The notes: generated by a model from the sequence alone, not told the origin. A stretch of DNA of 64,000 nucleotides from Planotetraspora sp. GP83 (GCF_041262585.1 NZ_JBGCBZ010000002.1:1-64000), one strand, 5' to 3'. Numbered from the stretch's first letter, positions 5,847 to 64,000 are shown. A program made the numbers and translations.

Positions 5847-6000
5847 GTCTGGAGTCTCCTCCTGTAGAAGTCCACCCTCTGTGCGGAAAGCGCCCTTCCT
5901 GTACCCCCGGTAAAGCTGTCAGGTCACAACGCGCGGCATACGCCGCGCCGCGGATCGCCATCGGCTCGGAGATACACGTTCACTACCGTCGCCCATCTCG

Positions 6001-6030
6001 CTTGCCGTGGGCTTGGCGTGGACTTGGCAC
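6001..6030. promoter_or_regulatory. three direct repeats with 11-bp periodicity (CTTGCCGTGGG / CTTGGCGTGGA / CTTGGCAC) ~155-185 bp upstream of the rppA start; candidate SARP operator
   Basis: Seen directly. SARPs bind direct repeats spaced one helical turn apart near the -35 element of their target promoters. Confidence 0.3.
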
Positions 6031-6145
6031 CCCTTCCGGCGGCGGAGGAGGAAGACACTTGGGACGCGCTTGCCCCAACGGCGCGGTCGCACCGTCTGAC
6101 GAGGGTTCCGGTGTCGCACAGGGTGCAGGCGCCCGCGGCGGACTT

Positions 6146-6607: not shown

Positions 6608-6785
6608 CCCGAGCGACCTCTCTAATGCAGCCCACTTCGTCAGGCTGCTTGACAATACAATACTCCTAATAGGACAGTAGCTTTACTGAACTTGACAACC
6701 ATGATGCGACCGAGCGAGCCATCGTGTGTTGTCGTATGGCCGATCCAGTGGCGAATCCCCGAATACCGGTAGAGGTGGGAATTTG

Positions 6786-26707: not shown

Positions 26708-26714
26708 GGGCGCG

Positions 26715-28790: not shown

Positions 28791-28802
28791 CCAAGTCCCC
28801 TG

Positions 28803-48331: not shown

Positions 48332-49711
48332 TCAGAAACCGGCGGTTATGCGGGTGAAGTCCCAGTTGTTACCGGACAGGCCGCTGCAGGTCTCCTGAAG
48401 GCCGCCGCCCGCGCACGGACGGTCCCGGTTGACCGACCAGAACGCGAGACGGGTGAGGCCCTTGGAGTTGGCCCAGTCACGGATCTGCGTCCAGGTCGAC
48501 TGGGTGGTGACCTCCCCCTGGTCGGACAGGCCGTTCATGCCGGAGATGCCCATGTGCGCGTACGCCTGGGCGTCGGTCCAGCCCCACGCGTTCTTGAGCG
48601 CGGTCTTCAGTCCCTCGGCCGCGTTGACCGTGCTCTGGTACATGTTCGCGCCGCCGCCGAAGTCGAACGGCATGATCGTGTAGTTGTCGATGGGCACGTT
48701 GAGCGCCCGGGACTGGTTGATCAGCCGGATGCCGTCGCCGCCAGGCCCGCTGGTGCTCGTGCCGAAGGTGAGGGCGACCTTGACGTTGGGGTTGTTCTGC
48801 TTGACGATCTTCAGGCCGCCCAGGATGCGGTCCTGGACCGTGTAGTTCGAGAACTCGTCGGTGTTCTCGATGTCGAAGTCCACCACGGCGGGGCCGACGG
48901 CGTTGATGACCTGCTGCACCGCGCCGGCGAAGGCGGAGGACGACGAACAGTTCGGGCCGAGCTTGTTGCCCGACCAGCCGCCGAAGGAGACCTGGACGCT
49001 GCCGCCCGCCCCCTTGATCGACGAGATCGTCTGCGCGTCCACGCCCCCCGTAAGCGGACGGGAGCCGTCCCACATCGGCGTGCAGCCTCCCCCGGAGAGG
49101 ATGAACGCCATGGTGAAGGACTTGACCCCGGTGGCGCTCATCACCGAGGTGGCGCTGGGCGGGCTGCCCCAGCCCATGTAGAGGTACGGCGCGCCGGGCA
49201 TCTTGCCGGGCGGGGGTGGCGGCGGCGGGGTGGTACCGCTGGGCAGCGTCCACCGCTGGTTGGCCCCGGCGAAGCAGTCCCAGAGCTGGAGCGGGGTTCC
49301 GTCGGCCGAGCTGGGTCCGGTGGCGTCCAGGCACTTGCCGAGAGCGCGCAGGGTGCCGTCGGAGCCGGCCGTCCAGTTCTGCGCCGCCGTGCCGTTGCAG
49401 TCCCAGATCTGCACCTTGGTGCCGTTGGCGCTGCTGGCGGCGGCGACGTCCAGGCACTTGCCGAGCGCCCGGATAGTGCCGTCGGTATCCACGGTCCACT
49501 GCTGGGCGCCGGTGCCGTTGCAGGTGTAGAGCTGCACCTGGGTCCCGTTGGCGCTGCTGGCGGCGGCCACGTCGACGCACTTGCCGCCGTAGCCGGTGAT
49601 CTGTCCTGTGGCCGCCCACGCGGGGACGACGCCGGTCACGACGAGGGACAGGGCGGCCACCAGCGCGCCCACGAGGAGACGCAGGTGGCGGCCGGAGTGT
49701 TGCGATTTCAT
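48332..49711 (-). CDS. secreted ricin-B lectin (beta-trefoil) + GH18 glycoside hydrolase (chitinase-like)
   Basis: Start MKSQHSGRHLRLLVGALVAALSLVVTGVVPAWA (signal peptide). QxW repeats (AQQWT, AQNWT, NQRWT). Pro linker. GH18 DxDxE box (VVDFDIE). Confidence 0.8.
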   Translation of the reverse strand: MKSQHSGRHLRLLVGALVAALSLVVTGVVPAWAATGQITGYGGKCVDVAAASSANGTQVQLYTCNGTGAQQWTVDTDGTIRALGKCLDVAAASSANGTKVQIWDCNGTAAQNWTAGSDGTLRALGKCLDATGPSSADGTPLQLWDCFAGANQRWTLPSGTTPPPPPPPGKMPGAPYLYMGWGSPPSATSVMSATGVKSFTMAFILSGGGCTPMWDGSRPLTGGVDAQTISSIKGAGGSVQVSFGGWSGNKLGPNCSSSSAFAGAVQQVINAVGPAVVDFDIENTDEFSNYTVQDRILGGLKIVKQNNPNVKVALTFGTSTSGPGGDGIRLINQSRALNVPIDNYTIMPFDFGGGANMYQSTVNAAEGLKTALKNAWGWTDAQAYAHMGISGMNGLSDQGEVTTQSTWTQIRDWANSKGLTRLAFWSVNRDRPCAGGGLQETCSGLSGNNWDFTRITAGF

Positions 49712-50382
49712 GGGGGGCGTGTCTCTTTCTTCGAGAGAGGCTTGACTTGAACTAACCTCCGAATTAAGGGCCTGAGAACCTCCCTTGGTCCGCCTTCCCG
49801 CAGGCCGTGACGGGCGGCCCCGATACTGACAGGAAGGTTTCTTATTTATTTTATGATCTGAATTTAAGGCTGGCCGGGCACGGTGAGTCAAGAGGCAAGT
49901 TGCCGGCCGCACTGCCGGTCAGGTTGGATCTCGGTTCTGCCGGGGTCGGAGCCTCCGTGCCCGCCGGCACCGACTGAGGGGCGGATCCTCGATCCCGGCC
50001 ACTGGGCCCCTGAGCCGATCCGGGCGACGCCCGGGGCCTCTCGGAACCAGCCCACCCGGTGCGCCGGGCGGGCCTCCACTCCGGCCAAGGCAGAAATCAA
50101 TCCCTCGGCCGAACACTTCAACCGGCCACGCCAAGATCCAAAAAAAACAGCGGTTAGCATCGCTAATCCTCAGCGCAATATTGGCGCGCGCTTATCGTCT
50201 GGACACTGCATCCGGCGCCCGTGAGACTCGCAGCACAGTGATTGCCCTCAGCCGCGGCGGATGGAAATTCGACAGCACAACGGTCTATCACTTGTTGCAG
50301 CACCCCGAAAAGCGCGACCCCCCGGTCCGGAGTGGCACACCCAAACTGGGATACCACGCCGGGAAGCAAGGAAAGGCAAGCG

Positions 50383-51225
50383 ATGACCACGAAGCGCATT
50401 TCTCTGGCCATCGGCGCGGTGTTCCTCACTGCCCTCACCACGGCGGCATGTGGAAGCTCCGATCCGGCCGCCGGCGACAAGTCCGGAATCGATACCGTCA
50501 AGCCCGGCGTGCTGACCGTGGTCTTCGCGGACTTCCCTTACCCCGGGTTCATCGAAGGCAGCAACCCGACCGCCCCGACGGGCGGTTACTTCGTCGACCT
50601 GACTCAGAAGATGGGCAAGGATCTCGGTCTCAAGGTCGAATACAACAAGATCGACTTCACGGCAATGATCGGTGGGCAGGCGAAGAACTACGACATTTCA
50701 GCCGACACGTTCTCGATCCTTCCGGAGCGCGTCAAGAAATTCGATATGACCACTCCGATATGGTCCGACCATATCGCGATCGCCACCAAAAAGGGCGTGG
50801 ACGCGAGCACCGCCGACAAGATCCGAGAGCTGAAGCTGGGCTCCTGCGGAGCCTGCGACACGGCCCAATACATCAACAACGTGATCAAGCCCAACGTCAA
50901 GCCTCTCGGCTTCGACGAAGACCAGCAGAAGTACGACGCGGTGATGGACGGCCGCATCGACGGCGCCCTCGGCAACCTGCCGACGATCCTTTCCAAGATG
51001 CAGACCCCCAAATACTCCGGAATGCAGGCCGCCTGCCAACTGCCCGAGGAAAGCCAGTACGCCTGGATCCTCAACAAGGGTGCAGCGGTCTTCCCCAAGG
51101 TTCAGGACCTGCTGAAGAAGTACCAGGCGGACGGAACCCTCAAGGCGATGCAGGAAAAGAACGTCCTGCCCACTCTCGGTGGAGTCGATCCGGCTTCCGT
51201 GCCGACATGCCCGTCGTTCGGCTGA
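50383..51225 (+). CDS. amino-acid ABC transporter substrate-binding lipoprotein (SBP_bac_3)
   Basis: MTTKRISLAIGAVFLTALTTAAC (lipobox). Periplasmic-binding-protein type 3 pattern. Confidence 0.8.
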   Translation: MTTKRISLAIGAVFLTALTTAACGSSDPAAGDKSGIDTVKPGVLTVVFADFPYPGFIEGSNPTAPTGGYFVDLTQKMGKDLGLKVEYNKIDFTAMIGGQAKNYDISADTFSILPERVKKFDMTTPIWSDHIAIATKKGVDASTADKIRELKLGSCGACDTAQYINNVIKPNVKPLGFDEDQQKYDAVMDGRIDGALGNLPTILSKMQTPKYSGMQAACQLPEESQYAWILNKGAAVFPKVQDLLKKYQADGTLKAMQEKNVLPTLGGVDPASVPTCPSFG

Positions 51226-51351
51226 CGCCGGCCTCTGCGGCCGGCTCCGGCCGGCCATCGAAGAAGTGATCACGCGGGAGAGCCCGGCCGTCATCCCCCG
51301 GGACGGCCGAGCTCTCCCGCCGAGCAGGGAAGCGGACCAGGGAAGCGAACT

Positions 51352-52365
51352 ATGGATCAAACCATTGAGAATCCAGCGCAGTCGCCGGACGGCCTGTTGG
51401 TCGTCGGGCAGGTTGATTCTGATGGCGACAACGCACCGAACAGATTCCCGAGCATGATTTCACCGATCATCGCGACGGTGCTGTTCCCGCCGGTGGGACT
51501 GGTCTCCCTCATCAACGCGGTCAGATATCGCCGGTCGGTGCGGGAGGGGAGGCCCGCCGTCGCGCAGGCCCTGAGGGCACGGGATTGGGCCACGTACGCG
51601 TTCGGCGCGGCCCTCACCACCCTCATCGTGGTGGCGATCGCGGCGTTTCTCCTGCTCAACGATCACGCCGTGCTGCGTGCGTATTTCGACCTCGACGCCC
51701 TCGGGAAGAGCATCCCGGACATCGCCGGCGCCTTCGTGAGCAACCTCACCGTTTCGATCACCGCCGAAATCGGAATCGTCATCTGGGGCCTTGTTCTCGC
51801 CGTAGGCCGCTCCCTGCCAGGCCGGGCATACCTGCCAATACGACTTATCGTCGTTGGCTACATCGACCTGTTCCGCGCGCTTCCCGGCCTTCTGACGATC
51901 CTTCTGATCGGGTTCGGACTACCCGCCACCGGCATCGGCTTCTTCGCGACCATGTCGCTGTACCAGACGGGCGCCATAGCCCTCATCGTGGTCTACGGCG
52001 CCTACGTGGCCGAGATCTTCCGCGGAGCGATCGACGCGATTCCGAGCGGGCAGCTCGCCGCGGCGCGTTCCCTGGGATTCGGATATTTCGGCGCCATGCG
52101 CCACATCATCTTGCCCCAAGCGATCCGGTCGACTCTGCCCTCGCTGCTGAACTGGTACATCTCCGTGCTCAAGGACACCTCGCTGCTCTCGGTGCTCGGC
52201 CTGGTCGAAGGCCTGACGACAGCGAGAATTCAGGTCACTTTCATGTCGAATCTGAGCCCCCTGGTGGGGGTCTCCCTGTGCTTCCTTGTCGTCACGCTGC
52301 CGCTGTCACGCCTCACGGACTACATCATCATGCGCTCAGCTCGCAAACGCCAGGGAAAGGCGTGA
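51352..52365 (+). CDS. amino-acid ABC transporter permease (His/Glu/Gln/Arg/opine type) with an ~90-aa N-terminal extension
   Basis: EAA-like loop ...AARSLGFGYFGAMRHIILPQAIRSTLPSLLN. Confidence 0.8.
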   Translation: MDQTIENPAQSPDGLLVVGQVDSDGDNAPNRFPSMISPIIATVLFPPVGLVSLINAVRYRRSVREGRPAVAQALRARDWATYAFGAALTTLIVVAIAAFLLLNDHAVLRAYFDLDALGKSIPDIAGAFVSNLTVSITAEIGIVIWGLVLAVGRSLPGRAYLPIRLIVVGYIDLFRALPGLLTILLIGFGLPATGIGFFATMSLYQTGAIALIVVYGAYVAEIFRGAIDAIPSGQLAAARSLGFGYFGAMRHIILPQAIRSTLPSLLNWYISVLKDTSLLSVLGLVEGLTTARIQVTFMSNLSPLVGVSLCFLVVTLPLSRLTDYIIMRSARKRQGKA

Positions 52366-52369
52366 GTGA

Positions 52370-53113
52370 ATGTCATTCGTCAGACTTGAACATGTGGGAA
52401 AGACCTACGGGTCCATAAAGGTGCTGAACGACCTGAATCTCCGGGTCGGCAAGCATGAGGTCGTGTGTCTGATCGGCCCCTCCGGCTGCGGAAAGTCAAC
52501 GATGCTGAGATGCGTCAACGGCCTGGAGTCCATTCAGACCGGAGCCGTCTTCGTCGGCGACCTAGAGGTGTCGAGTCCCATCGTGGACATGAATGCCGTG
52601 CGCCGCCGCGTGGGCATGGTCTTCCAGCACTTCAATCTCTTCCCGCACATGACGGCCATCGAAAACGTCATGGTCGCGCAACGGCGCGTCCTGGGCAGGG
52701 ACAAGGGGGCGGCCCGGGACATCGCTTTCCGGCTCCTCTCCCGCGTCGGCCTGTCGAAGAAGGTCGGCAAATATCCCGAGGCGCTCTCAGGAGGCGAGCA
52801 GCAGCGGGTGGCGATCGCCCGCACGCTTGCCATGTCCCCCCAGGCTCTTCTTCTCGACGAGATCACTTCCGCGCTCGATCCGGAACTCGTCGGCGAAGTC
52901 CTGGAAATCGTCCGCGAGCTCGCGAACGAGGGGATGACGATGCTGCTGGCGACCCATGAAATGAGCTTCGCACGCGAGGTCGCCACCCGTGTGTGCTTCG
53001 TCGCCGACGGCTCGATATACGAGGAAGGCCCCGCGGAGAAGATTCTGTCGGACCCGGATCGGCCGAAGACGCAGGCATTCCTGCGTCGTCTCGTCGAATC
53101 GCACCGGCTCTGA
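52370..53113 (+). CDS. amino-acid ABC transporter ATP-binding protein
   Basis: GPSGCGKST, LSGGEQQRVAIARTLA, LLLDEITSALD. Confidence 0.9.
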   Translation: MSFVRLEHVGKTYGSIKVLNDLNLRVGKHEVVCLIGPSGCGKSTMLRCVNGLESIQTGAVFVGDLEVSSPIVDMNAVRRRVGMVFQHFNLFPHMTAIENVMVAQRRVLGRDKGAARDIAFRLLSRVGLSKKVGKYPEALSGGEQQRVAIARTLAMSPQALLLDEITSALDPELVGEVLEIVRELANEGMTMLLATHEMSFAREVATRVCFVADGSIYEEGPAEKILSDPDRPKTQAFLRRLVESHRL

Positions 53114-53199
53114 TCGCACGGCTCTAATCGCGGCGGCTCTACACATCGGAGCGGCGACCACGGCACAGCGGAAGCCGCGTAATCGGAGATCACAAGTTC

Positions 53200-53703
53200 A
53201 TGACGGACGAGATCGGCTACTACTTCGCCTATTGCACCTGGCTCGACCCTCGGCTCCTCAAGGCGAGGGCTCCCAGCGCGAGGGTCGTCACCCTCGGCAG
53301 AGCTCACAACCGGCGAGTCGAGTTCCGCCGGTCGGCGGACTCGGAAGGCAGCAAGGGCTGGTGTCACCTCTCGGACAGCGGTGACGCCTGGGGCCGGGTC
53401 GCATATGGCGCGATCATCGAAATGGGCCTGCCTCATAACGCGCGGGTCTTCGCGGCGAATGGGGCGCGGTTCCTCAGCGTGTACGGGGATGACGGCGCCG
53501 TCTACGACTGCTGGACGTACTGCCTGAACAATCCGGGTGAGCCGATGAGGGTCCCGGACTATGAGTGGGATCACATCGTGGCCGGCATCGAGGCGTGGGC
53601 CCTGCCGCGGTCCTACGCGGAGGAGTTGCGGGCGACGTATGACGCGGCTGAGGCCTGCCCCGATCCCGGGCGGGCCAACCCGGTCCTCCTCCCGGACGAA
53701 TAG
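53200..53703 (+). CDS. gamma-glutamylcyclotransferase-like (GGCT/AIG2/GGACT-fold) protein
   Basis: N-terminal IGYYFAYCTWLDPRLL resembles the YFAYGSNL motif of the GGCT fold. Confidence 0.5.
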   Translation: MTDEIGYYFAYCTWLDPRLLKARAPSARVVTLGRAHNRRVEFRRSADSEGSKGWCHLSDSGDAWGRVAYGAIIEMGLPHNARVFAANGARFLSVYGDDGAVYDCWTYCLNNPGEPMRVPDYEWDHIVAGIEAWALPRSYAEELRATYDAAEACPDPGRANPVLLPDE

Positions 53704-53747
53704 TCGACGGTCGTACCCGGACACCGGAAGAAAGCGAATCAACACCC

Positions 53748-54926
53748 ATGACCGTGACACAAGACGTCGTCGTCATCGGCGGCGGCCTCAACGGTGCCGC
53801 GACGGCATATCACCTGTCCCGACTGGGCGCGGGGCAGGTCATTCTCCTGACCGGAACCATGGCGGACCGTAGCGCGTCTCAGGACGCCGTCGGCCTGCTG
53901 AGAACCCACCACGACAACAGGCCCGAGGCGGCTCTCGCGGCGGCGAGCATGCCGTTCTTCGAGCATTGGGAGGAGCACGTTGGGGCGCCCAACGGGTGGC
54001 TCCCCTCGGGCTTCATCCGTTTCGTCGGCGAGGACGAGGTCGAGAGCCTCAAGACCAATGTCGCCATTCAGCATGAGCTCGGAGTGGAGGCGCTCGTTCT
54101 TGGCCCCGCGGAGATCGCCGGCCTCCACCCCTACTTCGACCTGCACGGGATCGGCGCGGCGGTCTATGAGCCCAACGCCGGAACGGCCGACAACTGGCAG
54201 TGCACGACGACGCTTCGCGCCGCGGTCAAGCGGCTGGGTGTCCACGTGAGCCCCACGGACGCCACCGCGATTCTGGTCGATGACCGCGGAGTGACAGGCG
54301 TTGAGACCGCCGGCGGGGAGACCATCGCCACGCGGACCGTCGTGCTGGCGGCGGGCGCCTGGTCGAAGCCCCTCGCCGCGTCGGCGGGCATCGCGTTGCC
54401 GCTGGAATCACGGGCGATATCCGTGGGCGAGATCGACCTTCCCGAGGAGCTCGGCCGAGTCAGTTCGTACATGGATCCGATCACCGATTCCTGGCTGACG
54501 CCCAGACCCGGTCGTCGCGGCCTCATCACGCTGCATGACGAGTTCACGGCGAAGCCGGCGGATCCCGACAGGTACGGCCTGCGCGTCGACCCGGCCGCCG
54601 ACGCGGAGGGGATCGCGAAGGTCGCCTCCCGCGTACCGACACTCGGCGGCTCGAAGGTCCGGCGGTCATGGACCAGAGTCGACACCTACGCCCCAGACGG
54701 CAAGCCAATCTTCGGCGGGGTGGATCAGATGCCGGGGTTATACCTGAATGTCGCAGCGGCCGGCAAAGGGCACAAGGTGGCGCCGGCGGCGGGGCTGTCC
54801 CTCAGCGAGCTCATTCTCGGCCACGACACGACGACCGTCGATCTGACGCCGTTCAACCTGAATCGATTCGCGGGTGCCGGGTTCCCGGTGTCCGGCGCGG
54901 AATACGCCAAACGAACCATCGGGTGA
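53748..54926 (+). CDS. FAD-dependent oxidoreductase of the DAO family (sarcosine/pipecolate-oxidase-like)
   Basis: VVVIGGGLNGAATAYHLSR (GxGxxG). DAO-like length and C-terminal ...AAGKGHKVAPAAG. Confidence 0.8.
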   Translation: MTVTQDVVVIGGGLNGAATAYHLSRLGAGQVILLTGTMADRSASQDAVGLLRTHHDNRPEAALAAASMPFFEHWEEHVGAPNGWLPSGFIRFVGEDEVESLKTNVAIQHELGVEALVLGPAEIAGLHPYFDLHGIGAAVYEPNAGTADNWQCTTTLRAAVKRLGVHVSPTDATAILVDDRGVTGVETAGGETIATRTVVLAAGAWSKPLAASAGIALPLESRAISVGEIDLPEELGRVSSYMDPITDSWLTPRPGRRGLITLHDEFTAKPADPDRYGLRVDPAADAEGIAKVASRVPTLGGSKVRRSWTRVDTYAPDGKPIFGGVDQMPGLYLNVAAAGKGHKVAPAAGLSLSELILGHDTTTVDLTPFNLNRFAGAGFPVSGAEYAKRTIG

Positions 54927-54967
54927 GCCCTGCCTCCCGAAGCCCCCGCTACTCAGAGGAATGACAA

Positions 54968-55449
54968 TGACCTCGCCTGATGAATCCACCACCTACTACT
55001 TCGGTTACGGCACCCTGCTGGGAACCGACGAGATGCGGAAGTACTGTCCGGGCGCCGAGAAGGTCGCCGTCGCCTCCTTCCCCGGCCACCGGCTCGAATT
55101 CTGGGCCTACGACGAGAACCGCGTGGGATGCCACCTGGCCGAGGCGCCGGGAACGACGGCGTACGGCGTCGTCTACCGGGTCCCCGATTCGGAGATGGCG
55201 GACCTCGACCGAGCGTCAGGTGTCGGCAACGGCTGGTTCCGGCGCCTGCCCATCGACGTCACCACGGTGGACGGCGTGCCCATGGTGGTCACGACGTACT
55301 TCCTGACGGATCCTCTGCGACCGGCGACCCCCGACGACGCATACGTGGGCCTGGTGCGCGAAGGCTCCCGATCGGCCGGTCTCCCCGAGGACTTCGTCGT
55401 CCGGCTGAACGACTACCTCGACGCGCTGCCCCCTCGCACGACCTCCTGA
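54968..55449 (+). CDS. second gamma-glutamylcyclotransferase-like (AIG2/GGACT-fold) protein
   Basis: TTYYFGYGTLLGTDEMRKY... Paralogous architecture to 53200-53703. Confidence 0.5.
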
Positions 55450-55461
55450 AGGAATATCAAC

Positions 55462-56817
55462 GTGACAAAGTCCACCAAACCCGCGTACTGCATCATCGGC
55501 GCGGGAGCAGCCGGCCTGGCCGCGCTCAAGGCGTTGGTGAGCGCGGGCCACGATGTCACATGTTTCGAACGCAGCGACCGCATCGGCGGGCATTGGCACA
55601 CGGACTACGAGGCGTTGCATCTGATCACGCCCCGGGATTCCTCCGGCTTCGCGGACCGCGAGATGCCCAGCGCCTACCCGACGTTCCCCAGCCGGAACCA
55701 GATGCGGGACTACATCGTCGACTACGGAATGAGCAACGGACTGACCGAGCACATTCTGTTCTCCACAGAGGTGGTCCAGGTCAGACCTGTCAACGGGGAC
55801 TCCAGCCAGGGCTGGCTCGTCTCGACGTCTGATGGCGCGACACGGCACTTCGACGCGGTGATCGTGGCCAACGGACACCTGTGGGATCCCGCCCTCCCGG
55901 ATGTCGCCAGTGGATTCACCGGCGTTTCCCTGCACTCATCTCAATACAGGAACACCCGGGATCTCGAAGGACCGCGAGTCCTCGTGGTGGGCGCGGGCAA
56001 CTCGGGATGCGACCTGGCCGTCGACGCCGCGCAGGGCGGCTTCACCACCAGCATCTCGATCAGAGGCGGCCGGGTCTACCAACCCAAGACGCTGTACGGC
56101 AGGCCGCGCAGCGAGCTGAAGCTCGTCGCGAAACTCCCGCCGCGGCTTCAGGAGCGCGTCCTGCGTGAGCTGGTGAGAATCGCCGTCGGGGACCCGGAAA
56201 GCCATCGCGGGCTCCCGAAGCCCGACAGCCGGAACCTCTTCGAGAACCTCCCCGTCGTCAACAGCCTGCTGACTTACTGGATCGACCACGGTCGTATCCG
56301 GGTGGTGGGCGAGGTCGTCGCCATCGACGGCAGGGCGGTGTCGTTCGCCGACGGCACCACCGAGGAGTTCGACTCCATCCTGTGGGCTTCGGGATTCAAA
56401 GTCGCCCTGCCATTCCTGGAACCCTCCGCCGTCGAGACCCGTGAAGGCGTTCCGTTGAGGGTCGCGGGCGGCGTGCTGCCGCTCAATGCCTCGCGTCTGT
56501 TCTTTGTGGGTCTCATCGCCCCGCGAGGTCCTCAACTGCCCGTCTATTCGGCGCAGTCGGAATTGCTCCTTGACCTGCTGGCCGTCCAGGAGAAGGTGAC
56601 GAAACCCCTGGCGGAATACTTCGGCGGAGCACGGGCCGCGACGGACCAGATCGATCAACTCCGGCATGTGTGGGCGCGAGACATGGCCAAGGCGACGCGG
56701 TTGGCGCGCCGGCTGAAGGAGCGCCCACCGGCGGCCGGTGCTTTTCACCGGCCCGCCCGCTCAGCGTTTCCGGACTCGTCCGTACGGCGGGTCGACCGCG
56801 CCACGGAAGGCCCGTGA
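55462..56817 (+). CDS. flavin-containing monooxygenase (FMO; two Rossmann motifs)
   Basis: YCIIGAGAAGLAALKAL (FAD) and VLVVGAGNSGCDLAVD (NADPH), FMO-like spacing. The C-terminal ~60 residues are low-complexity and the true stop may be earlier. Confidence 0.75.
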   Translation: MTKSTKPAYCIIGAGAAGLAALKALVSAGHDVTCFERSDRIGGHWHTDYEALHLITPRDSSGFADREMPSAYPTFPSRNQMRDYIVDYGMSNGLTEHILFSTEVVQVRPVNGDSSQGWLVSTSDGATRHFDAVIVANGHLWDPALPDVASGFTGVSLHSSQYRNTRDLEGPRVLVVGAGNSGCDLAVDAAQGGFTTSISIRGGRVYQPKTLYGRPRSELKLVAKLPPRLQERVLRELVRIAVGDPESHRGLPKPDSRNLFENLPVVNSLLTYWIDHGRIRVVGEVVAIDGRAVSFADGTTEEFDSILWASGFKVALPFLEPSAVETREGVPLRVAGGVLPLNASRLFFVGLIAPRGPQLPVYSAQSELLLDLLAVQEKVTKPLAEYFGGARAATDQIDQLRHVWARDMAKATRLARRLKERPPAAGAFHRPARSAFPDSSVRRVDRATEGP

Positions 56818-56926
56818 CCACCAGCGGATCTGGTGCTGGAGTGTCGAAACCCAGCGGCTGAGAGCCTTCCAACCGGCTACCGCCTCAGTGATGCTGAGTC
56901 GGCATCACAATGACCTAAGGAGAACT

Positions 56927-58093
56927 GTGACGGACGTCCTCGCGCTCATGGATGAATGGGGTCCGGAGAAGGTTGTCTGTGTCTCGGATCGCAAATCCGG
57001 GATGAAGGGCGTGCTTGTCCTGGACAACACCGCTCGGGGCATGGGCAAAGGCGGCACCCGGATGAGTCCCACATTGTCCGTCAACGAGGTGGCTCGCCTG
57101 GCGCGCACGATGACGTGGAAATGGGCGGCCGCGGATCTTTACTACGGCGGCGCCAAGGCCGGCCTCATGGGGGACCCCAACGCGGCGAACAAGGAGCAAC
57201 TCCTGCGGGCCTTCGCGCGGGCCCTTTCCAACGAGGTGCCGAAGGAGTACGTCTTCGGCCTGGACATGGGGCTTTCGGAGAAGGACGCGGCGATCTTCAT
57301 CGACGAGCTCGGCGATCGTGGAGCGGCGGTCGGCCTTCCCACGGCGCTCGGAGGAGTGCCCTACGACGAGCTCGGGGTCACCGGCTTCGGCGTCGCGGAG
57401 GCGGCCGATGCCGCGGCCCAGACCCTCAGCGTCCCCATGGAGGGCGCCCGGGTCGTCATCCAGGGCTTCGGGGCGGTGGGCGCCGCGGCCGCCGAGCGGT
57501 TCCGCGCCTTGGGAGCCACGGTTGTCGGCGTGTCCACGTCCGTCGGCTCGGTGCACGATCCTGACGGCCTGGACCTGAACCGGCTCCTGCAACTGCGCGG
57601 CGAGGCCGGCGACGGGTGTGTGCGCGAGTACGGCGGGGTCCGGCCGACCGGCGACGCGCTGGCCTTCGACTGCGACATCCTGGTCCCCGCGGCCATCCAG
57701 GACGTGGTGGATGTGGATGTCGCCCGGTCGACGACGGCCTCCCTGGTGGTCGAGGGAGCCAACATGCCGACGACCGGTCCGGCCCTGGAGGTGCTGGCGG
57801 CGCGGGGCGTCTCCGTGGTTCCCGACTTCATCGCCAACGCGGGAGGGGTCATCGCCGCCGCGTTCTCCATGGACAACCGATACTCGCCGTTCGCCACCGA
57901 CCCAGCTCAGATCTTCGCCCACATATCCACGAAGATCCGCGGCAACGCCGCGACGGTGCTGCTGGAGAGCAGCACGCGCGGCACCACGCCGCACGTCGCG
58001 GCCCGGCAGATCGCCCAGGAGCGAGTGCTGGCGGCGATGCGCCTGCGTGGCCGGACCGCGATCGGCGAACACGCCAAGCAGCCCGTGGCATGA
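56927..58093 (+). CDS. Glu/Leu/Phe/Val-family amino acid dehydrogenase
   Basis: GTG start after AAGGAG. Catalytic-Lys region GMGKGGTRM and NAD-binding QGFGAVGAAAAE. Confidence 0.75.
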   Translation: MTDVLALMDEWGPEKVVCVSDRKSGMKGVLVLDNTARGMGKGGTRMSPTLSVNEVARLARTMTWKWAAADLYYGGAKAGLMGDPNAANKEQLLRAFARALSNEVPKEYVFGLDMGLSEKDAAIFIDELGDRGAAVGLPTALGGVPYDELGVTGFGVAEAADAAAQTLSVPMEGARVVIQGFGAVGAAAAERFRALGATVVGVSTSVGSVHDPDGLDLNRLLQLRGEAGDGCVREYGGVRPTGDALAFDCDILVPAAIQDVVDVDVARSTTASLVVEGANMPTTGPALEVLAARGVSVVPDFIANAGGVIAAAFSMDNRYSPFATDPAQIFAHISTKIRGNAATVLLESSTRGTTPHVAARQIAQERVLAAMRLRGRTAIGEHAKQPVA

Positions 58094-58195
58094 GCCGAGC
58101 CCGGCGCCCCGTACAGGCCCCGGCTCCGAGCTCAAAGCCCTGACGGGCTCGGCTGCCCAGCCAGGTTCACGTGACCACAGATTGAGAGAACTGTT

Positions 58196-59803
58196 GTGAC
58201 CCCCACCTCGTCCGCCGCCGCCTCGCCGCCCGCCGCCTTGCCAACTCACGCCTTGCCAACTCACGCCTTGCCAACTCACGCCTTGCCAACCGCCGAGCAC
58301 CTCCGCGAGGAGGCCCAGCGCGCCCTTGAGCGCTGTGGCGTGGACCCCGTGCTGTTGCGTGGCGCCCACTCCTCACGGTCCCCCATCAACGGTGCGGAGT
58401 TGCTGCCGGTCACATGGGTGGACGGCGATGCCGTGGACGAGACGGTGTCGCGCGCCCGGGAAGCCTTTCTCACCTGGCGAGAGACCCCCGCACCCGTGCG
58501 GGGAGCGCTGGTGGGCAGGCTGGGCGATCTGCTTGTCGAGCACAAGCAGGACATCGCGACCCTGATCAGCCTCGAAGTAGGCAAGATCGCCTCTGAGGCG
58601 CTCGGCGAAGTGCAAGAGATGATCGATATCTGCGAGTTCGCCGTCGGCCTGTCCCGTCAGCTCTATGGGAAGACCATGCCGTCCGAGCGTCCCGGTCACC
58701 GGCTCATGGAGACCTGGCACCCGTTGGGGATCGTGGGCGTCATCAGTGCCTTCAACTTCCCGGCGGCCGTGTGGTCGTGGAACGCGGCGGTGGCGCTGGT
58801 CTGTGGTGACACAGTGGTCTGGAAGCCGTCCGAGACGGCGCCGCTGACCGCCCTGGCCTGCCAGGCGGTTCTTCAGCGGGCGATCGAGGAGACGGGAGCG
58901 CCGCGGCATGTCAGCCAGGTCCTGCTCGGCGGAGCCGATGTGGGAGAACGGCTGGTGGACCACCACGACGTGGCCCTGCTCAGCGCCACGGGTTCCACGC
59001 GGATGGGGCGTGCTGTGGGGCCACGCGTGGCGGCCCGGTTCGGCCGGTGCCTGCTCGAGCTCGGCGGGAACAACGCGGCGGTCGTCGCACGATCGGCCGA
59101 CCTCGATCTCGCGACACGTGGCATCGTGTTCTCCGCGGCGGGAACCGCGGGCCAGCGATGCACGAGCATGCGCCGCGTGTTCGTCCACGAAGACATCGCC
59201 GACGAACTGGAACGTCGTCTCGTCGCGGCGTACGCGCGCCTCCCGATCGGCGATCCCACGGCAGACGGAACGCTCGTGGGCCCGCTCATCGACGAGAAGG
59301 CCTTCCAGAGTCTGGCCAGGGCCCTGGACCGGGCGTCTGAGGAAGGGGGAGAGCTTCTGGTCGGCGGAGGACGCCGTCTGGACGACGTGACTCCGGATGC
59401 CTACTACGTCGAGCCGGCCATCGTCCGCATGCCCGCGCAGAGCGCGATCGTGCGGGAGGAGACGTTCGCTCCCCTGCTGTACCTCATGCGCTACCGGGAT
59501 CTTGACACCGCCATCGAGCTCAACAACGACGTGCCGCAGGGTCTGTCGTCGTCGATCTTCACTTCCGACCAGGCGGAGGCGGAGCGGTTCGTCAGCGCTG
59601 TCGGGTCGGACTGCGGCATCGTCAACGTGAACATCGGCACGTCCGGCGCCGAGATCGGCGGCGCCTTCGGTGGCGAGAAGGAGACCGGCGGCGGCCGTGA
59701 GTCGGGATCGGATGCCTGGCGGGCCTACATGCGTCGGGCGACCAACACGATCAACTATTCGGGCGAGCTTCCCCTGGCCCAAGGCGTCGACTTCACCGTC
59801 TGA
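58196..59803 (+). CDS. ALDH7-type aldehyde dehydrogenase (piperideine-6-carboxylate / alpha-aminoadipic-semialdehyde dehydrogenase-like)
   Basis: C-terminal ...NVNIGTSGAEIGGAFGGEKETGGGRESGSDAWRAYMRRATNTINYS is diagnostic of the ALDH7/antiquitin (Pcd/AmaB) subfamily. The N-terminus carries a 3x HALPT repeat. Confidence 0.8.
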   Translation: MTPTSSAAASPPAALPTHALPTHALPTHALPTAEHLREEAQRALERCGVDPVLLRGAHSSRSPINGAELLPVTWVDGDAVDETVSRAREAFLTWRETPAPVRGALVGRLGDLLVEHKQDIATLISLEVGKIASEALGEVQEMIDICEFAVGLSRQLYGKTMPSERPGHRLMETWHPLGIVGVISAFNFPAAVWSWNAAVALVCGDTVVWKPSETAPLTALACQAVLQRAIEETGAPRHVSQVLLGGADVGERLVDHHDVALLSATGSTRMGRAVGPRVAARFGRCLLELGGNNAAVVARSADLDLATRGIVFSAAGTAGQRCTSMRRVFVHEDIADELERRLVAAYARLPIGDPTADGTLVGPLIDEKAFQSLARALDRASEEGGELLVGGGRRLDDVTPDAYYVEPAIVRMPAQSAIVREETFAPLLYLMRYRDLDTAIELNNDVPQGLSSSIFTSDQAEAERFVSAVGSDCGIVNVNIGTSGAEIGGAFGGEKETGGGRESGSDAWRAYMRRATNTINYSGELPLAQGVDFTV

Positions 59804-59846
59804 GACCCTGAACGGCCGGCATGTACGGCCGGCATGGCGCTTGAGA

Positions 59847-60815
59847 TCAACCGTTGTTGCCGGCATCGGGGTGCGTCACGTACCCGGGCGTGGGTGGGCA
59901 CACTCCCGGCCGGGTGCCGACGATCGCGGCGGCGGCTCGTTCGAGCGCCCGCAGGGCCCCGGTGACGGCACGGTTGTACTTCGTCGCCCGATGCAGCACG
60001 GCGACGTGGCGGCGGGCGGTCACGTCCTTCAGAGGGGCCGCGAAGACCCCGTCGCTGGTCACGTGGCTGAGTGCCGGCACGAGGGCGATCCCGAGGCTGG
60101 AGCGTACGAAACTGCGGATGACGTCGTAGTCGTTGCTGCGTACGGCCACGGCGGGCTCGAAGCCCTTACTCGTGCACAGCCGTCTCATGCATTTGGACCC
60201 CGCGGTCCCCTCGCGGGTCGAGACCCAGTTCTCGGTGGCCAGATCGGACAGGACGATGGAGTCCACGGTGGTGAGCTGATGGCCCTCGGGGAGCAGCAGG
60301 ATCAGCTCCTCGTCCAGCAACGGTTTCGCCTGCAGGGTCCGCGGCCAGGACCGTGGAACCAGGTCGTAGTGGTACACCAGGGCAAGGTCGATTCTGCCGT
60401 CCTGGAGGCTGTTCACCAGATCCTCGGACTCACCCTCGTCGAGCAGGATCTCGACCTTCGGATGGTCGTTGAGGAACGCGGCCAGCGCCTCGGGAAGCAG
60501 TCGCTCGCTCGCGGTCGGGAAGCTGCCTATCCGGATGCGCCCGACGGTGCCCTCGGCCATGCCGGTGATGTCGTCCTCGAGCGCCTTCAGGCTTGCCAGG
60601 GTGTCGTGCGCGCGGGCGGCCAGGAACTCCGCCGCCGCCGTGGGCCGCACACTGTGCGCGGCCCGCTCGAAAAGGGGCACCTTGACGACCCGCTCCAGGG
60701 CGGCGATCTGCTGCGACACCGCGGAGCCCGTGTAGCCCAGATCCCGTGCGGCGTCAGCGAACGAGCCAGAACGGATCACGGCGACGAGTGTCCGTAAGTG
60801 AACGGGATTGAGCAT
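59847..60815 (-). CDS. LysR-family transcriptional regulator
   Basis: MLNPVHLRTLVAVIRSGSFADAARDLGYTGSAVSQQIAALE... HTH plus substrate-binding domain. Divergent/adjacent to the catabolic operon. Confidence 0.85.
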   Translation of the reverse strand: MLNPVHLRTLVAVIRSGSFADAARDLGYTGSAVSQQIAALERVVKVPLFERAAHSVRPTAAAEFLAARAHDTLASLKALEDDITGMAEGTVGRIRIGSFPTASERLLPEALAAFLNDHPKVEILLDEGESEDLVNSLQDGRIDLALVYHYDLVPRSWPRTLQAKPLLDEELILLLPEGHQLTTVDSIVLSDLATENWVSTREGTAGSKCMRRLCTSKGFEPAVAVRSNDYDVIRSFVRSSLGIALVPALSHVTSDGVFAAPLKDVTARRHVAVLHRATKYNRAVTGALRALERAAAAIVGTRPGVCPPTPGYVTHPDAGNNG

Positions 60816-61001: not shown

Positions 61002-63869
61002 TCAGTGGGGCAGGTGTTCGGCGAGGAGCTGGGCGAGATGCCGGCCCGTGCGGTCGGTGAGCGTGCTGAGCTGGGTGCGGCAGCTGAACCCGTCGGCGAG
61101 CAGGATGGTGCCTGGCCCGGCCGCCCGGACGGCGGGCAGAAGCCGGTGCTCGGCGACGGCGACGGAGACATCGTGGTGTCCACGCTCGACGCCGAAGTTG
61201 CCGGCCAGGCCGCAACACCCGCCGAGCCGCTCGACGTCGGCCCCGGCGTCCCGCAGCAGGGCGGCGTCGGCGGCCCAGCCCATCACGGCGTGGTGGTGGC
61301 AGTGGGGCTGGGCGACGCCGGTGGTGCCGGTCAGGTCTGGCGGGGTCCAGCCGGGCGTCTGGCCGAGCAGCTCGGCCAGGGTGCGGGTCGCGGCGGCGAC
61401 CTCTCTGGCGGCGACCAGGGCCGCGGCGTGCGCGGCGTCCTCCCCGTCCAGCAGTTCGACGGCGTCAGCGCGTAGCACTCCGGTGCAGGAGGGCTCAAGC
61501 CCGACGATCACGGCGCCGGCCCGCACATGCGGCAGCAGCGCGTCGATCGTGGCGCGTGCCTGTCTTCGGGCGCCGTCCAGCTGGCCGGTGGAGATCCAGG
61601 TCAGGCCGCAGCAGACCGGGCGGTCGGTGACGGTGACGCGGTAACCGGCGTCTTCGAGGACGGCGACGGCCGCCTGCCCGACCTCGGGCGAGAAGGCGTC
61701 CGTGAAAGTGTCGACGAACAGGACGACGTCCCCGTGCTCCGCGGTGCCGGGCCTTACAGGCCGCTGGGCGAACCAGCGCCGGAAGGGGTTCTCCGCGAAT
61801 GCCGGCAGCGACCGGCGCCGGTCGATCCCGGCGCTCCAGGTGACGAGCGGGTGCAGCGTCTTCGACCGCATGGCGACGTTGGCCAGCCTCGTCAGGACGA
61901 CCGAGCGGCCGGCCAGGCGCGCCCAGCGTGGCAGCCACCCGAGGGCGTAGTGGGACCGCGGACGCGGCCGGCGCCGATACCGCTGGTGCAGCGCCTCGGC
62001 CTTGTAGGCGGCCATGTCCACACCGGTCGGGCAGTCCGACGAGCAGCCCTTGCACGACAGGCACAGGTCCAGGGCGTCGTGCAACGCCTGCGATCTCCAC
62101 CCATCCGGGCCGAGGTCGCCCGACACCGCGTCCTGCAGCACCCGGGCGCGGCCACGTGTGGAGTCCTTCTCGTCGCGCGTGGCCACGAAGCTCGGGCACA
62201 TCACGCCACCATCGGCGCTGTTGTCCGCGCGGCACTTGCCCACCCCCGTGCAGCGGTGCACCGCCGCCGACAGATCACCGCCGTCGTGGCGGTACGCCAG
62301 GCCGAGGGTGGCCAGCTCGGCTCGTCTCAACGGCTTCGCCGCCGCGACCCGGACATCGGCCTCGAAGGGGGCAGGACGCACGATCACGCCGGGGTTCAGC
62401 AGGTCATCGGGGTCGAACACGGCCTTGACCCTTTCGAACAGCCCGATCGCCTGTGGCGAGTACATCAGCGGCAGCAGCTCACTCCGGGCGCGGCCGTCGC
62501 CGTGCTCACCGGACATCGACCCGCCGTGCTCGGCCGCCAGAGCGCCCGCGGCGAGCAGGAAGTCGCGGAAGACGCCGGTGCCTCGGTCGAACGGGAAGTC
62601 GATGCGGATGTGGACGCACCCGTCACCGAAGTGCCCGTACGGCAGGCCGGTCAGCCGGTACCGATTCATCAGCGTCTCGAACTCACGCAGGTAGGCGCCC
62701 AGCCGCTGCGGCGGCACCGCGGCGTCCTCCCATCCGGCGTGGGCGGGGGCGCCGGCGGGCGTGCGCGCGGACAGTCCCGCGCCGTCCTCCCGGATCTTCC
62801 ACAGCGCCGCGGCGTGGACGGGGTCGGTGACGACCCGCGAGTCCAGCGCCCCGGCGTCCGCGACCAATCCGCGCGCCGCGGCCCGTACGGCGCCGCTGTC
62901 CTCCCCGGCGAGCTCGACGAACAGCCAGCCGGAACCGCGCGGCAGCTCGGGGACGGCGGCCGGCCCCCGCCGAGCGCGCACCACGTCCACGATCCGCGCG
63001 TCCAGCCCCTCGCAGGCGACGGGGTCGTGCGGCAGGACGGCGGGGACGGCGTCCGCGGCCTCCGCCATCGACGGGTATCCGAGCGCGACCAGAATCCGCA
63101 CGGGAGCGTCCCGCACCAGCCGCACCCGGGCCGCGAGCGTCAAGGCCAGCGTTCCCTCGCTGCCGACCAGTGCCCGCGCGACGTCGAACCCGTTCTCTGG
63201 AAGCAGATGCTCCAGTGCGTAGCCCGACACCTGCCGCCCGAATCTGCCCAGCTCGGTGCGGATCGTCGCCAGGCCGTCGCGCACCACCCCTCGCAGATCC
63301 GTCAGCAGCGGCGAGGTCGCCGTGGGGTTGTCCATCGCGCCCAGCCGCAGCCGCTCCCCCGTACCGGCCAGCACATCGAGCCCCAGGACGTTGTCGCTGG
63401 TCCGGCCGTACCCCAGCGCCCGCGACCCGCACGCGTTGTTACCGATCATCCCGCCCAGCGTCGCGCGGTTGTGGGTCGAGGGGTCGGGGCCGAACCGCAG
63501 GCCGTGCCTCGCCGCCGCCTTCTGCAGGTCCGCCTGCACCACACCGGGCTCCACCAGCGCCGTTCCGCCCTCCGCGTCCACCTCCAGCACGCGGTTCAGG
63601 TGGCGGCTGACGTCCACCACCACACCGGGCCCGACCGCGTTGCCCGCGATCGACGTGCCGGCTCCCCGCATCGTCAGCGGGACGGCATGCTCGCGGCACA
63701 CCCGGAGCACAGCGGCCAGCTCGTCCACATGACGCGGCACCACCACCACCCGGGGAGGGATCCGGTACAGCGACGCGTCAGAGGAGTACAACGACCGGCG
63801 CAGAGGCGACCCGTCCACATCTCCGGCACCCGCCGAACGCAGGGCCGCGACCAGATCCGCGTCGGCCAT
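61002..63869 (-). CDS. fused FAD-linked oxidase (GlcD-like) + 4Fe-4S / CCG-domain (GlcF-like) dehydrogenase
   Basis: FAD_binding_4 region (RGAGTSIAGNAVG), Cys clusters CxxCxxCxxxCP in the C-terminal half. Start at MADADLV (63869) or MTRKDS (63887). Confidence 0.8.
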   Translation of the reverse strand: MADADLVAALRSAGAGDVDGSPLRRSLYSSDASLYRIPPRVVVVPRHVDELAAVLRVCREHAVPLTMRGAGTSIAGNAVGPGVVVDVSRHLNRVLEVDAEGGTALVEPGVVQADLQKAAARHGLRFGPDPSTHNRATLGGMIGNNACGSRALGYGRTSDNVLGLDVLAGTGERLRLGAMDNPTATSPLLTDLRGVVRDGLATIRTELGRFGRQVSGYALEHLLPENGFDVARALVGSEGTLALTLAARVRLVRDAPVRILVALGYPSMAEAADAVPAVLPHDPVACEGLDARIVDVVRARRGPAAVPELPRGSGWLFVELAGEDSGAVRAAARGLVADAGALDSRVVTDPVHAAALWKIREDGAGLSARTPAGAPAHAGWEDAAVPPQRLGAYLREFETLMNRYRLTGLPYGHFGDGCVHIRIDFPFDRGTGVFRDFLLAAGALAAEHGGSMSGEHGDGRARSELLPLMYSPQAIGLFERVKAVFDPDDLLNPGVIVRPAPFEADVRVAAAKPLRRAELATLGLAYRHDGGDLSAAVHRCTGVGKCRADNSADGGVMCPSFVATRDEKDSTRGRARVLQDAVSGDLGPDGWRSQALHDALDLCLSCKGCSSDCPTGVDMAAYKAEALHQRYRRRPRPRSHYALGWLPRWARLAGRSVVLTRLANVAMRSKTLHPLVTWSAGIDRRRSLPAFAENPFRRWFAQRPVRPGTAEHGDVVLFVDTFTDAFSPEVGQAAVAVLEDAGYRVTVTDRPVCCGLTWISTGQLDGARRQARATIDALLPHVRAGAVIVGLEPSCTGVLRADAVELLDGEDAAHAAALVAAREVAAATRTLAELLGQTPGWTPPDLTGTTGVAQPHCHHHAVMGWAADAALLRDAGADVERLGGCCGLAGNFGVERGHHDVSVAVAEHRLLPAVRAAGPGTILLADGFSCRTQLSTLTDRTGRHLAQLLAEHLPH

Positions 63870-64000
63870 GGAGTCTTTCCTCGTCATCTCACGCCACCGG
63901 GATCGGTACGGTCCCGTCGAGGCCGAGCCCTGCCGCGACCTGCCGCAACGACCCCGCGCGCTGCGCCTCGTACAGCTCACCGGGCTCCTGGACCTGGCGG

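Follow-up and report, generated by a model that had tools for sequence, protein, structure and literature searches.

In the mammalian saccharopine pathway, 2-aminoadipate semialdehyde (AASA) passes through 2-aminoadipate and 2-oxoadipate to glutaryl-CoA and then crotonyl-CoA. The Puu pathway of Escherichia coli works on gamma-glutamylated putrescine, with the PuuA ligase, the DAO-family oxidase PuuB, the aldehyde dehydrogenase PuuC and the hydrolase PuuD, and the occ and noc opine regions of Agrobacterium combine a LysR regulator, an SBP_bac_3 importer and an OoxAB/NoxAB oxidase for an N-substituted basic amino acid. The D-lysine/pipecolate branch of Pseudomonas putida comprises the pipecolate oxidase AmaA, the piperideine-6-carboxylate (P6C) dehydrogenase AmaB, HglS, YdiJ/PP_4493 and an aminotransferase, PP_4108, which exemplifies the enzyme type known to carry out the 2-aminoadipate step (bioRxiv 10.1101/450254). 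Here we describe an operon of the soil actinomycete Planotetraspora sp. GP83, at positions 50383-60815 of NZ_JBGCBZ010000002.1:1-64000 (assembly GCF_041262585.1; this whole stretch of 64,000 nucleotides is called the window below), in which nine co-directional genes on the + strand, followed by a convergent LysR gene, encode a polar-amino-acid ATP-binding cassette (ABC) importer, two small proteins with the gamma-glutamylcyclotransferase (GGCT) fold (GGCT1 and GGCT2), a DAO-family flavoenzyme, a flavin-containing monooxygenase (FMO), an ELFV-family amino-acid dehydrogenase and an aldehyde dehydrogenase (ALDH) of the ALDH7/Pcd type. We propose, with a probability of roughly 50%, that the operon is inducible and imports a lysine-derived conjugate, that the GGCT-fold pair, the DAO enzyme and the FMO convert it to P6C/AASA, and that the Pcd-type ALDH and the ELFV enzyme carry this on to 2-oxoadipate; any individual guess at the substrate is improbable at best.

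In this proposal the compound taken up by the ABC system would be a derivative of lysine or pipecolate, either conjugated or N-substituted, and the GGCT1/GGCT2 pair would cleave or rearrange an amide on the imported compound by cyclotransferase-type chemistry with a non-canonical active site. The DAO flavoenzyme would then oxidise the C6-N bond to give P6C/AASA, which the ALDH would convert to L-2-aminoadipate, and the ELFV enzyme would act on 2-aminoadipate, on released glutamate or on both, deaminating them to the 2-oxo acid. The FMO could serve to N-oxygenate a secondary amine, whether this belongs to the substrate or to the leaving group. The resulting 2-oxoadipate would be handled elsewhere, and, in a sister version of the cluster described below, by a 2-oxoacid dehydrogenase E1 and a glutaryl-CoA dehydrogenase.

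Like the P. putida branch, the locus has an ALDH7-type P6C dehydrogenase that would make 2-aminoadipate, a DAO flavoenzyme upstream of it and an adjoining YdiJ-like gene. It departs from that branch in that its DAO protein is not AmaA-like, the ELFV enzyme replaces the aminotransferase and no HglS was found among the open reading frames (ORFs) scanned, and it adds two GGCT-fold proteins, an FMO and a dedicated ABC importer. The likeness to Streptomyces clavuligerus Pcd and to the saccharopine pathway lies in the close homology of the ALDH (769 and ~499 bits, respectively) and in the downstream E1 and glutaryl-CoA dehydrogenase supplied by the sister cluster; unlike the saccharopine pathway, the operon has no lysine aminotransferase or saccharopine dehydrogenase that would make AASA, and the sister E1 is a fused enzyme of the pyruvate/branched-chain 2-oxoacid dehydrogenase (PDH/BCKDH) type, not of the OGDH/DHTKD1 type. 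A Puu-like logic is possible, in which the DAO and ALDH enzymes would work on an amine that carries a gamma-glutamyl group on its other nitrogen, to be taken off later; compared with Puu, a GGCT-fold protein stands in place of the PuuD amidotransferase-type hydrolase, and the ALDH is of the ALDH7 type. No PuuA-like ligase was found, since there is no Gln-synt domain among the operon genes and a glutamine-synthetase-like protein encoded next to the sister cluster is unmatched in the window.

Genes were called by listing ORFs and filtering them on G+C content at third codon positions (GC3), and products were identified with Pfam and NCBIfam scans. Together these confirm the gene content that a sequence-only reading of this DNA had given, namely an importer, two GGCT-like proteins, a DAO-family enzyme, an FMO, an amino-acid dehydrogenase, an ALDH7 and a LysR regulator, all of which are present between 50383 and 60815. 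That reading had placed the GGCT-like pair at 53200-53703, which stands, and at 54968-55449, where the start is one base out of frame (Table 1). It had also taken the combination to be undescribed as a unit, and literature searches aimed at the combination turned up no prior description. Coding genes in the operon are separated by 4-126 bp, an operon-like spacing. The identical nine-gene order, followed by the LysR gene and a YdiJ-like gene, recurs in Planotetraspora sp. A-T 1434, which is the closest relative (GGCT1 94% identical), in two Streptosporangium genomes and in four metagenome contigs, and every gene is under purifying selection (pairwise dN/dS 0.05-0.44). The gene content and its conserved order are far beyond chance expectation, and, with the sister cluster, conservation as a unit is established in two actinobacterial lineages.

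The sister cluster was reached by searching for FMO homologues and reading the contexts of the matches, and it lies on the metagenome contig ERZ27251455 k141_24308 (loci L075/L079). Its order is ELFV (on the opposite strand), LysR, glutaryl-CoA dehydrogenase, fused E1, SBP_bac_3 substrate-binding protein (SBP), permease, ATPase, GGCT1, GGCT2, DAO, FMO, a major facilitator superfamily (MFS) exporter and a second LysR. Its proteins are 54, 60, 75, 52, 53, 47, 59 and 46% identical to those of the window (75% being the ATPase), both of its LysR proteins are 45-46% identical to the window LysR, and the visible N-terminus of its ELFV enzyme is 77% identical to the window's. The acyl-CoA dehydrogenase is a glutaryl-CoA dehydrogenase, matching the M. 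smegmatis enzyme with 540 bits; the best match compared with it that does not bear this name, an acyl-CoA oxidase, reaches 218 bits. The E1 is a fused alpha/beta 2-oxoacid dehydrogenase E1 of the PDH/BCKDH type. A metagenome scan with GGCT2 recovered one further fragment of the sister cluster (L083). Comparison of the two versions thus defines a conserved core consisting of the ABC importer, GGCT1, GGCT2, the DAO enzyme, the FMO, the ELFV dehydrogenase and LysR, and a set of variable add-ons, with Pcd in one lineage and the E1 and glutaryl-CoA dehydrogenase in the other. The two sets of add-ons follow one another along the classical trunk, which leads from AASA by way of 2-aminoadipate and 2-oxoadipate to glutaryl-CoA. 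That the two lineages carry parts of one and the same trunk is the strongest evidence that the operon breaks down a compound with a lysine skeleton, and it suggests that the ELFV enzyme is the link from 2-aminoadipate to 2-oxoadipate.

Directly after the sister cluster, k141_24308 carries at 13806-21302 genes for an RpiR regulator, an amino-acid permease, the glutamine-synthetase-like protein mentioned above (gamma-glutamylputrescine-synthetase-like, 244 bits), an Amidohydro_2 protein, an M20 amidohydrolase, an APH-like kinase and a class III aminotransferase. The set looks like gamma-glutamylation-type amine catabolism, and it may or may not be linked to the sister cluster.

The lower part of the proposed route is the better anchored. 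The last gene of the operon had been described as being of the ALDH7/AmaB type, and this is borne out: its product scores 805.4 bits against the NCBIfam model NF050084 for L-piperideine-6-carboxylate dehydrogenase (cutoff 730), its closest solved structure is PDB 6rtr, 'Semialdehyde dehydrogenase Pcd' (769 bits), from S. clavuligerus, and human ALDH7A1 follows with ~499 bits. By these profile and structure matches, we regard its identity as an ALDH7/Pcd-type enzyme as established, with NAD-dependent oxidation of P6C/AASA to 2-aminoadipate as the predicted reaction. The conserved part of its ORF begins at ~58265. At 58235-58290, a 15-bp tandem repeat, GCCTTGCCAACTCAC, in three copies and a partial one, encodes (LPTHA)n within an Ala/Pro-rich N-terminal extension of the ALDH; gene calls in relatives differ in length, at 511 and 523 amino acids, so either the number of repeats or the start site may not be the same in all.

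The ELFV enzyme starts with a GTG at 56927 behind AAGGAG and has 388 residues, which makes it short like leucine and valine dehydrogenases, whose N-terminus its own resembles. Pfam assigns it an ELFV_dehydrog domain (184 bits) and the accompanying N domain, and its best NCBIfam glutamate dehydrogenase (GDH) model gives 186 bits against a cutoff of 620. Aligned to the GDH of PDB 8i83, it keeps the equivalents of K89 (GKGG), K113, K125 and D165, and has Ala for S380 (AGGVIAAAF). Residue numbers and roles are those of C. symbiosum GDH, with K113, K125 and D165 catalytic and K89 and S380 in the glutamate pocket. Retention of K89 points to a substrate with a distal carboxylate, such as glutamate or 2-aminoadipate, and we propose that this predicted dehydrogenase acts on one of these acidic amino acids. 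The phrase 'aminoadipate dehydrogenase' was not found among the papers retrieved by our literature search. The predicted lower route from P6C/AASA through 2-aminoadipate to 2-oxoadipate is well supported.

The upper part of the route is less sharply drawn. The DAO protein had been likened to the L-pipecolate oxidase AmaA, and this likeness did not hold up, as it scores 29.3 bits against the AmaA model NF050086 (cutoff 600) and 57.8 bits against TIGR01377 (cutoff 479.65), the model for the monomeric sarcosine/pipecolate oxidase (MSOX/PIPOX) type. Its neighbours in the PDB are the beta subunit of the P. horikoshii L-proline dehydrogenase (1y56_B, the best match), glycine oxidase, dimethylglycine dehydrogenase and SoxB. 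The best match acts on a cyclic imino acid, which, together with the Pcd/AmaB-type ALDH and a neighbouring YdiJ-like gene reminiscent of PP_4493, which belongs to the 2-aminoadipate route in P. putida, could be taken to mean that the operon simply degrades free pipecolate or D-/L-lysine as P. putida does with AmaA and AmaB, the GGCT-fold proteins and the FMO being accessory or unrelated. We consider this quite improbable: the AmaA model is unmatched, the YdiJ model is far under its cutoff and no DUF1338/HglS protein was found among the window ORFs scanned, and GGCT1, GGCT2 and the FMO are so tightly conserved together with the importer that what it brings in should be what they act on.

Oxidation of secondary amines is what the DAO neighbours SoxB, glycine oxidase, N-methyl-tryptophan oxidase and proline dehydrogenase have in common, and this bears on another explanation, that the substrate is an opine- or saccharopine-type N-epsilon-(carboxyalkyl)-lysine (saccharopine, carboxymethyl-lysine or carboxyethyl-lysine) which the DAO enzyme would split by oxidation at the lysine side into AASA and an amino acid, with the ALDH making 2-aminoadipate and the ELFV enzyme deaminating glutamate or 2-aminoadipate. 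Here the DAO, ELFV and ALDH steps are directly explained, and the LysR regulator, polar-amino-acid (SBP_bac_3) importer and DAO-family oxidase mirror the occ and noc regions. The operon differs from those regions in lacking an OoxA-type partner subunit and an ornithine cyclodeaminase, in having GGCT-fold proteins, an FMO, an ELFV enzyme and an ALDH7, and in its actinomycete host. Because such a pathway gives no role to the two GGCT-fold proteins or the FMO, all three of them part of the core that both lineages conserve, and no OoxA-like subunit is present, we judge it to be unlikely.

Both small proteins have the GGCT fold, directly recognisable for GGCT2 and modelled for GGCT1. GGCT2 matches Pfam AIG2_2 (44 bits) and GGACT (35.6 bits), aligns with human GGCT (C7orf24) at E=3e-12, and finds GGCT and YkqA alone by phmmer. 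GGCT1 has no Pfam or NCBIfam match, and a single-sequence search gave four relatives; a profile of its family matches human GGCT at E=8e-9, and an AlphaFold2 model built from 56 sequences has a mean pLDDT of 91.6 (44 with a 5-sequence alignment). With this model, Foldseek returns human GGCT at a TM-score of 0.74 (E ~1e-9), and the gamma-glutamylamine cyclotransferase GGACT (3jub, 1vkb) at 0.39-0.42. A genome scan gave 62 loci and a profile search 147 proteins of the GGCT1 family, and when 1.84 billion cluster representatives were searched exhaustively with HMMER, 15 matched at E<=1e-30 and 48 at E<=1e-10, beyond which the generic AIG2 superfamily begins, so the family is small and sharply bounded. 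Its motifs are YCTW, GWCH and DG..Y.C.TY; Y8, F9, C12, T13, N37, G53, W54, C55, G99, Y102 and C104 are invariant and H56 and C153 nearly so. GGCT1 gives a dN/dS of ~0.15 in comparison with both Streptosporangium genomes, and GGCT2 one of 0.34-0.36, values on which we rejected the idea that these genes are decaying pseudogenes.

The active sites depart from the described enzymes, in which the catalytic general acid/base is a glutamate, E98 in human GGCT and E82 in GGACT. GGCT2 and all its orthologues have Ser in the column of human Glu98 (LDRASGV, and LDEVSGV in the sister cluster, against human LDEQE98GV). In window GGCT1 the glutamate is missing from the loop: where the family has an acidic stretch, DYDDFER, the window protein reads VFAANGA, with no acidic residue in that loop, and the GGCT1 proteins of Streptosporangium and the sister cluster retain one Glu there (NEARF/YL), which in Streptosporangium is Glu88. 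Window GGCT1 deviates in all at 15 of the 57 positions that are at least 95% conserved in its family, among them E19, R49, D51, R52 and D86. The substrate-binding loop YG(T/S)xL of the described cyclotransferases is canonical in GGCT2 (YGTLL); in GGCT1 it reads YCTWL, with a family-invariant Cys for Gly (YGTYL in the sister-cluster orthologue). The GGCT1 family has invariant Cys residues of its own at positions 12, 55 and 104.

These observations bear on the substrate that the sequence-only reading had favoured, a gamma-glutamyl-lysine-type isopeptide. On that account the transglutaminase product epsilon-(gamma-glutamyl)-lysine or a gamma-Glu-Lys dipeptide is imported, the GGCT-like proteins release lysine and 5-oxoproline, and lysine is converted by way of pipecolate (through an AmaA-like DAO enzyme) and P6C to 2-aminoadipate. 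The GGCT fold of both small proteins, a polar-amino-acid importer, a Pcd-type ALDH and the GDH-like lysine that the ELFV enzyme keeps for an acidic side chain are all what it would call for. The gamma-glutamyl-amine (GGACT-type) activity ascribed to the pair is not upheld, as the fold is nearer to GGCT (TM 0.74) than to GGACT (0.39) and the catalytic Glu has no counterpart in either protein; the DAO enzyme falls far short of the AmaA model (29 bits, cutoff 600); Pfam and NCBIfam scans recognised no enzyme for lysine to pipecolate (lysine cyclodeaminase, piperideine-2-carboxylate reductase or lysine aminotransferase) and no 5-oxoprolinase among the operon genes; and the FMO goes unexplained. 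For these reasons epsilon-(gamma-glutamyl)-lysine becomes one guess among several, and a doubtful one. Of the broader claim, import and breakdown of a modified lysine by way of pipecolate/P6C, what survives is a catabolic, importer-linked unit and the direction towards P6C and aminoadipate, as indicated by the ALDH7/Pcd enzyme and the sister glutaryl-CoA dehydrogenase and E1, and what falls away is the pipecolate-oxidase step and the gamma-glutamyl-lysine specificity.

Elsewhere the GGCT1 family is mainly one of Proteobacteria from the rhizosphere and soil (Herbaspirillum, Azospirillum, Rhizobium/Agrobacterium, Variovorax, Acidovorax, Bosea and Brucella), and beyond them in a few Chloroflexi and one Nocardia. 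The proteobacterial genes always directly adjoin genes for an SBP_bac_3 protein, a permease and an ATPase, that is, a polar-amino-acid ABC importer, and this constant adjacency suggests that the substrate of GGCT1 is the imported compound. The same islands (for example L015 3427-11003 and L035 9995-15586, among L013-L071) also encode a GntR/FCD regulator, a VOC/glyoxalase-type protein, a conserved 93-residue protein of no known family and an EamA exporter, and we know of no description of this unit. In some of them there are also genes for a DAO homologue (32-35% identity) and a proC equivalog, and a pyrroline-5-carboxylate reductase there and a P6C dehydrogenase here hint that the two may be C5 and C6 versions of one theme.

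Drawing these strands together, one could go further and suppose that GGCT1 and GGCT2 represent a new class of GGCT-fold enzymes that dispense with the canonical Glu, perhaps by way of the invariant Cys and nearly invariant His, and that with the DAO enzyme and the FMO they form a new entry route for a natural lysine conjugate into the aminoadipate pathway; that the ELFV enzyme is the first NAD(P)-dependent L-2-aminoadipate dehydrogenase; and that the proteobacterial GGCT1-ABC-VOC-GntR islands degrade a C5 (ornithine/proline) counterpart. We offer this extended proposal very tentatively, as something that may well not be so.

The FMO is of class B (its FxGxxxHxxxY motif reads FTGVSLHSSQY), and its closest structures are PDB 8z12-17 (183 bits), on which a literature search for 8z12-8z17 found nothing. 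Beyond the cluster, the proteins closest to it (52-59% identity) are encoded in a widespread actinobacterial module in which a LysR gene is followed by FMO and short-chain dehydrogenase/reductase (SDR) genes, with LysR divergent in three of the five loci, and these five contexts (L076, L077, L078, L081 and L082) consist of such modules with no clue to a substrate. That relatives of the FMO include N-hydroxylases (a weak Lys_Orn_oxgnase match), that the GGCT-fold protein BtrG strips a gamma-glutamyl protecting group in butirosin biosynthesis, and that the MFS exporter of the sister cluster is EntS-like would be in keeping with a biosynthetic or tailoring cassette, for example one in which a lysine-derived intermediate is N-hydroxylated and a BtrG-like cyclotransferase takes off a gamma-glutamyl protecting group. 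We hold this to be highly improbable, given an ABC importer with a lipoprotein SBP, degradative companions in both versions (Pcd and ELFV here, glutaryl-CoA dehydrogenase and E1 in the sister cluster) and the absence of any ligase, nonribosomal peptide synthetase or polyketide synthase from the unit.

Several points weigh against the import and breakdown of a lysine conjugate as we have proposed it. The SBP, whose N-terminus MTTKRISLAIGAVFLTALTTAAC has a lipobox-like cysteine as read from the sequence, finds its best NCBIfam matches among Lys/Arg/Orn, cystine and Gln binders, all far under their cutoffs, and in the PDB it matches generic Gln/Arg binders only, so that its ligand is not inferable. 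The DAO protein is, as far as its sequence goes, a secondary- or primary-amine oxidase whose specificity is not readable from that sequence, and the FMO is without an assigned step in the proposed route. With the canonical catalytic Glu missing from both GGCT-fold proteins, and with Asp86 and Glu88 of the GGCT1 family replaced by Ala and Gly in window GGCT1, their activity is uncertain. Plain glutamate dehydrogenase activity would also fit the ELFV enzyme. The part of k141_24308 that was examined contains no ALDH7, which leaves the P6C step documented for a single lineage, and the glutaryl-CoA dehydrogenase found there fits a route from lysine through 5-aminovalerate and glutarate equally well. 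Lastly, the LysR gene is convergent with the operon and does not show the usual divergent layout.

Table 1. Features of the operon and its immediate surroundings (positions are those of the window).
Feature	Position	Strand	Evidence
Conserved 5' control region with palindrome TTAGCATCGCTAA	50128-50382	+	Cross-genome alignment
SBP_bac_3 lipoprotein, polar-amino-acid ABC importer	50383-51225	+	Pfam SBP_bac_3
ABC permease	51352-52365	+	Pfam BPD_transp_1
ABC ATPase, GlnQ/EhuA-like	52370-53113	+	Pfam ABC_tran; NCBIfam
GGCT1, 167 aa, GGCT-fold (modelled)	53200-53703	+	Family profile and AlphaFold2 model; no Pfam/NCBIfam match
DAO-family FAD amine oxidase/dehydrogenase	53748-54926	+	Pfam DAO, 161 bits
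GGCT2, GGCT/AIG2-like	54967-55449 (start 54967 or 54961)	+	Pfam AIG2_2 and GGACT
Class B flavin-containing monooxygenase (FMO)	55462-56817	+	Pfam FMO-like PF00743, 146.7 bits
Short ELFV-family amino-acid dehydrogenase	56927-58093	+	Pfam ELFV_dehydrog and N domain
ALDH7/Pcd-type P6C (2-aminoadipate semialdehyde) dehydrogenase	ORF 58196-59803	+	NF050084
LysR-type regulator, convergent with the operon	59847-60815	-	Pfam HTH_1 and LysR_substrate
YdiJ-like FAD/Fe-S 2-hydroxyacid dehydrogenase	61002-63980	-	Pfam FAD_binding_4, FAD-oxidase_C, Fer4, CCG

The operon is probably controlled by the adjacent LysR protein. Some 230 nt 5' of the SBP gene are near-invariant in the window, in Planotetraspora and in the two Streptosporangium genomes, with no alignment further upstream, and this stretch has persisted although synonymous sites of the neighbouring genes have diverged (dS up to ~0.5). 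It contains the palindrome TTAGCATCGCTAA at 50154-50166, a T-N11-A box of the LysR type that is present in all Streptosporangiaceae-type copies covering the region; the palindrome occurs once in the window, and at least one match arose in 19 of 100 shuffles. An adjoining regulator with HTH_1 and LysR_substrate domains and a T-N11-A dyad upstream are what a LysR-regulated operon is expected to have, and we take the dyad as a putative operator. No Rfam family, the lysine riboswitch included, matched the 5' region, RNAalifold on the conserved leader (four sequences) gave no convincing covariation, and scans for sigma-70 promoters and terminators gave nothing above chance. The conserved stretch could hold a promoter with LysR operators, or it could be an RNA leader of an unrecognised kind.

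Beyond the LysR gene, the YdiJ-like gene is syntenic with the cluster in both Planotetraspora and Streptosporangium and has a GC3 of 0.90, similar to the genome background. The architecture of its product fits YdiJ, and it scores 396 bits against NF049975 (D-2-hydroxyglutarate dehydrogenase), whose cutoff is 1350. It is possible but unproven that this gene belongs to the unit; with that score and no DUF1338/HglS among the ORFs scanned, we dropped it as proof of a route from 2-oxoadipate to D-2-hydroxyglutarate.

The cluster genes have GC3 values of 0.81-0.87, against 0.89-0.95 for the flanking genes, and the upstream flank is not alike between genera; the lower GC3 and the genus-dependent flank together suggest that the cluster was acquired as a block. 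Neither the FMO nor the DAO protein has a close homologue in a plasmid collection, where all matches are below 35% identity, and the Thioclava context was uninformative. Upstream of the operon lie genes for a GMC oxidoreductase, an ALDH and a ricin-lectin protein, whose functions look unrelated to it. The last of these, a 526-residue protein with a ricin-B-lectin domain (48332-49912, - strand), is divergent from the operon; it adjoins the cluster in Planotetraspora and is absent from that place in Streptosporangium. Elsewhere in the window, a gene for a 1688-residue DUF3686/DUF7902/AAA ATPase is preceded by genes for proteins of 691 and 208 residues that have no Pfam match (21641-29429, - strand), which looks like a three-gene system, and a type III polyketide synthase and an O-methyltransferase are encoded beside a BBE-like FAD oxidase at 3688-8204, maybe a small secondary-metabolite cassette.

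On the practical side, the locus offers candidate enzymes for the turnover of isopeptides and gamma-glutamyl compounds and for aminoadipate and pipecolate biocatalysis. If the proposal is true, the operon would constitute an upper pathway, so far undescribed, by which a natural compound derived from lysine enters the trunk of AASA, 2-aminoadipate, 2-oxoadipate and glutaryl-CoA, with a possible dehydrogenase alternative to the 2-aminoadipate aminotransferase, and it would, if our reading is right, provide the first functional context for the compact GGCT-fold family represented by the 62 loci.

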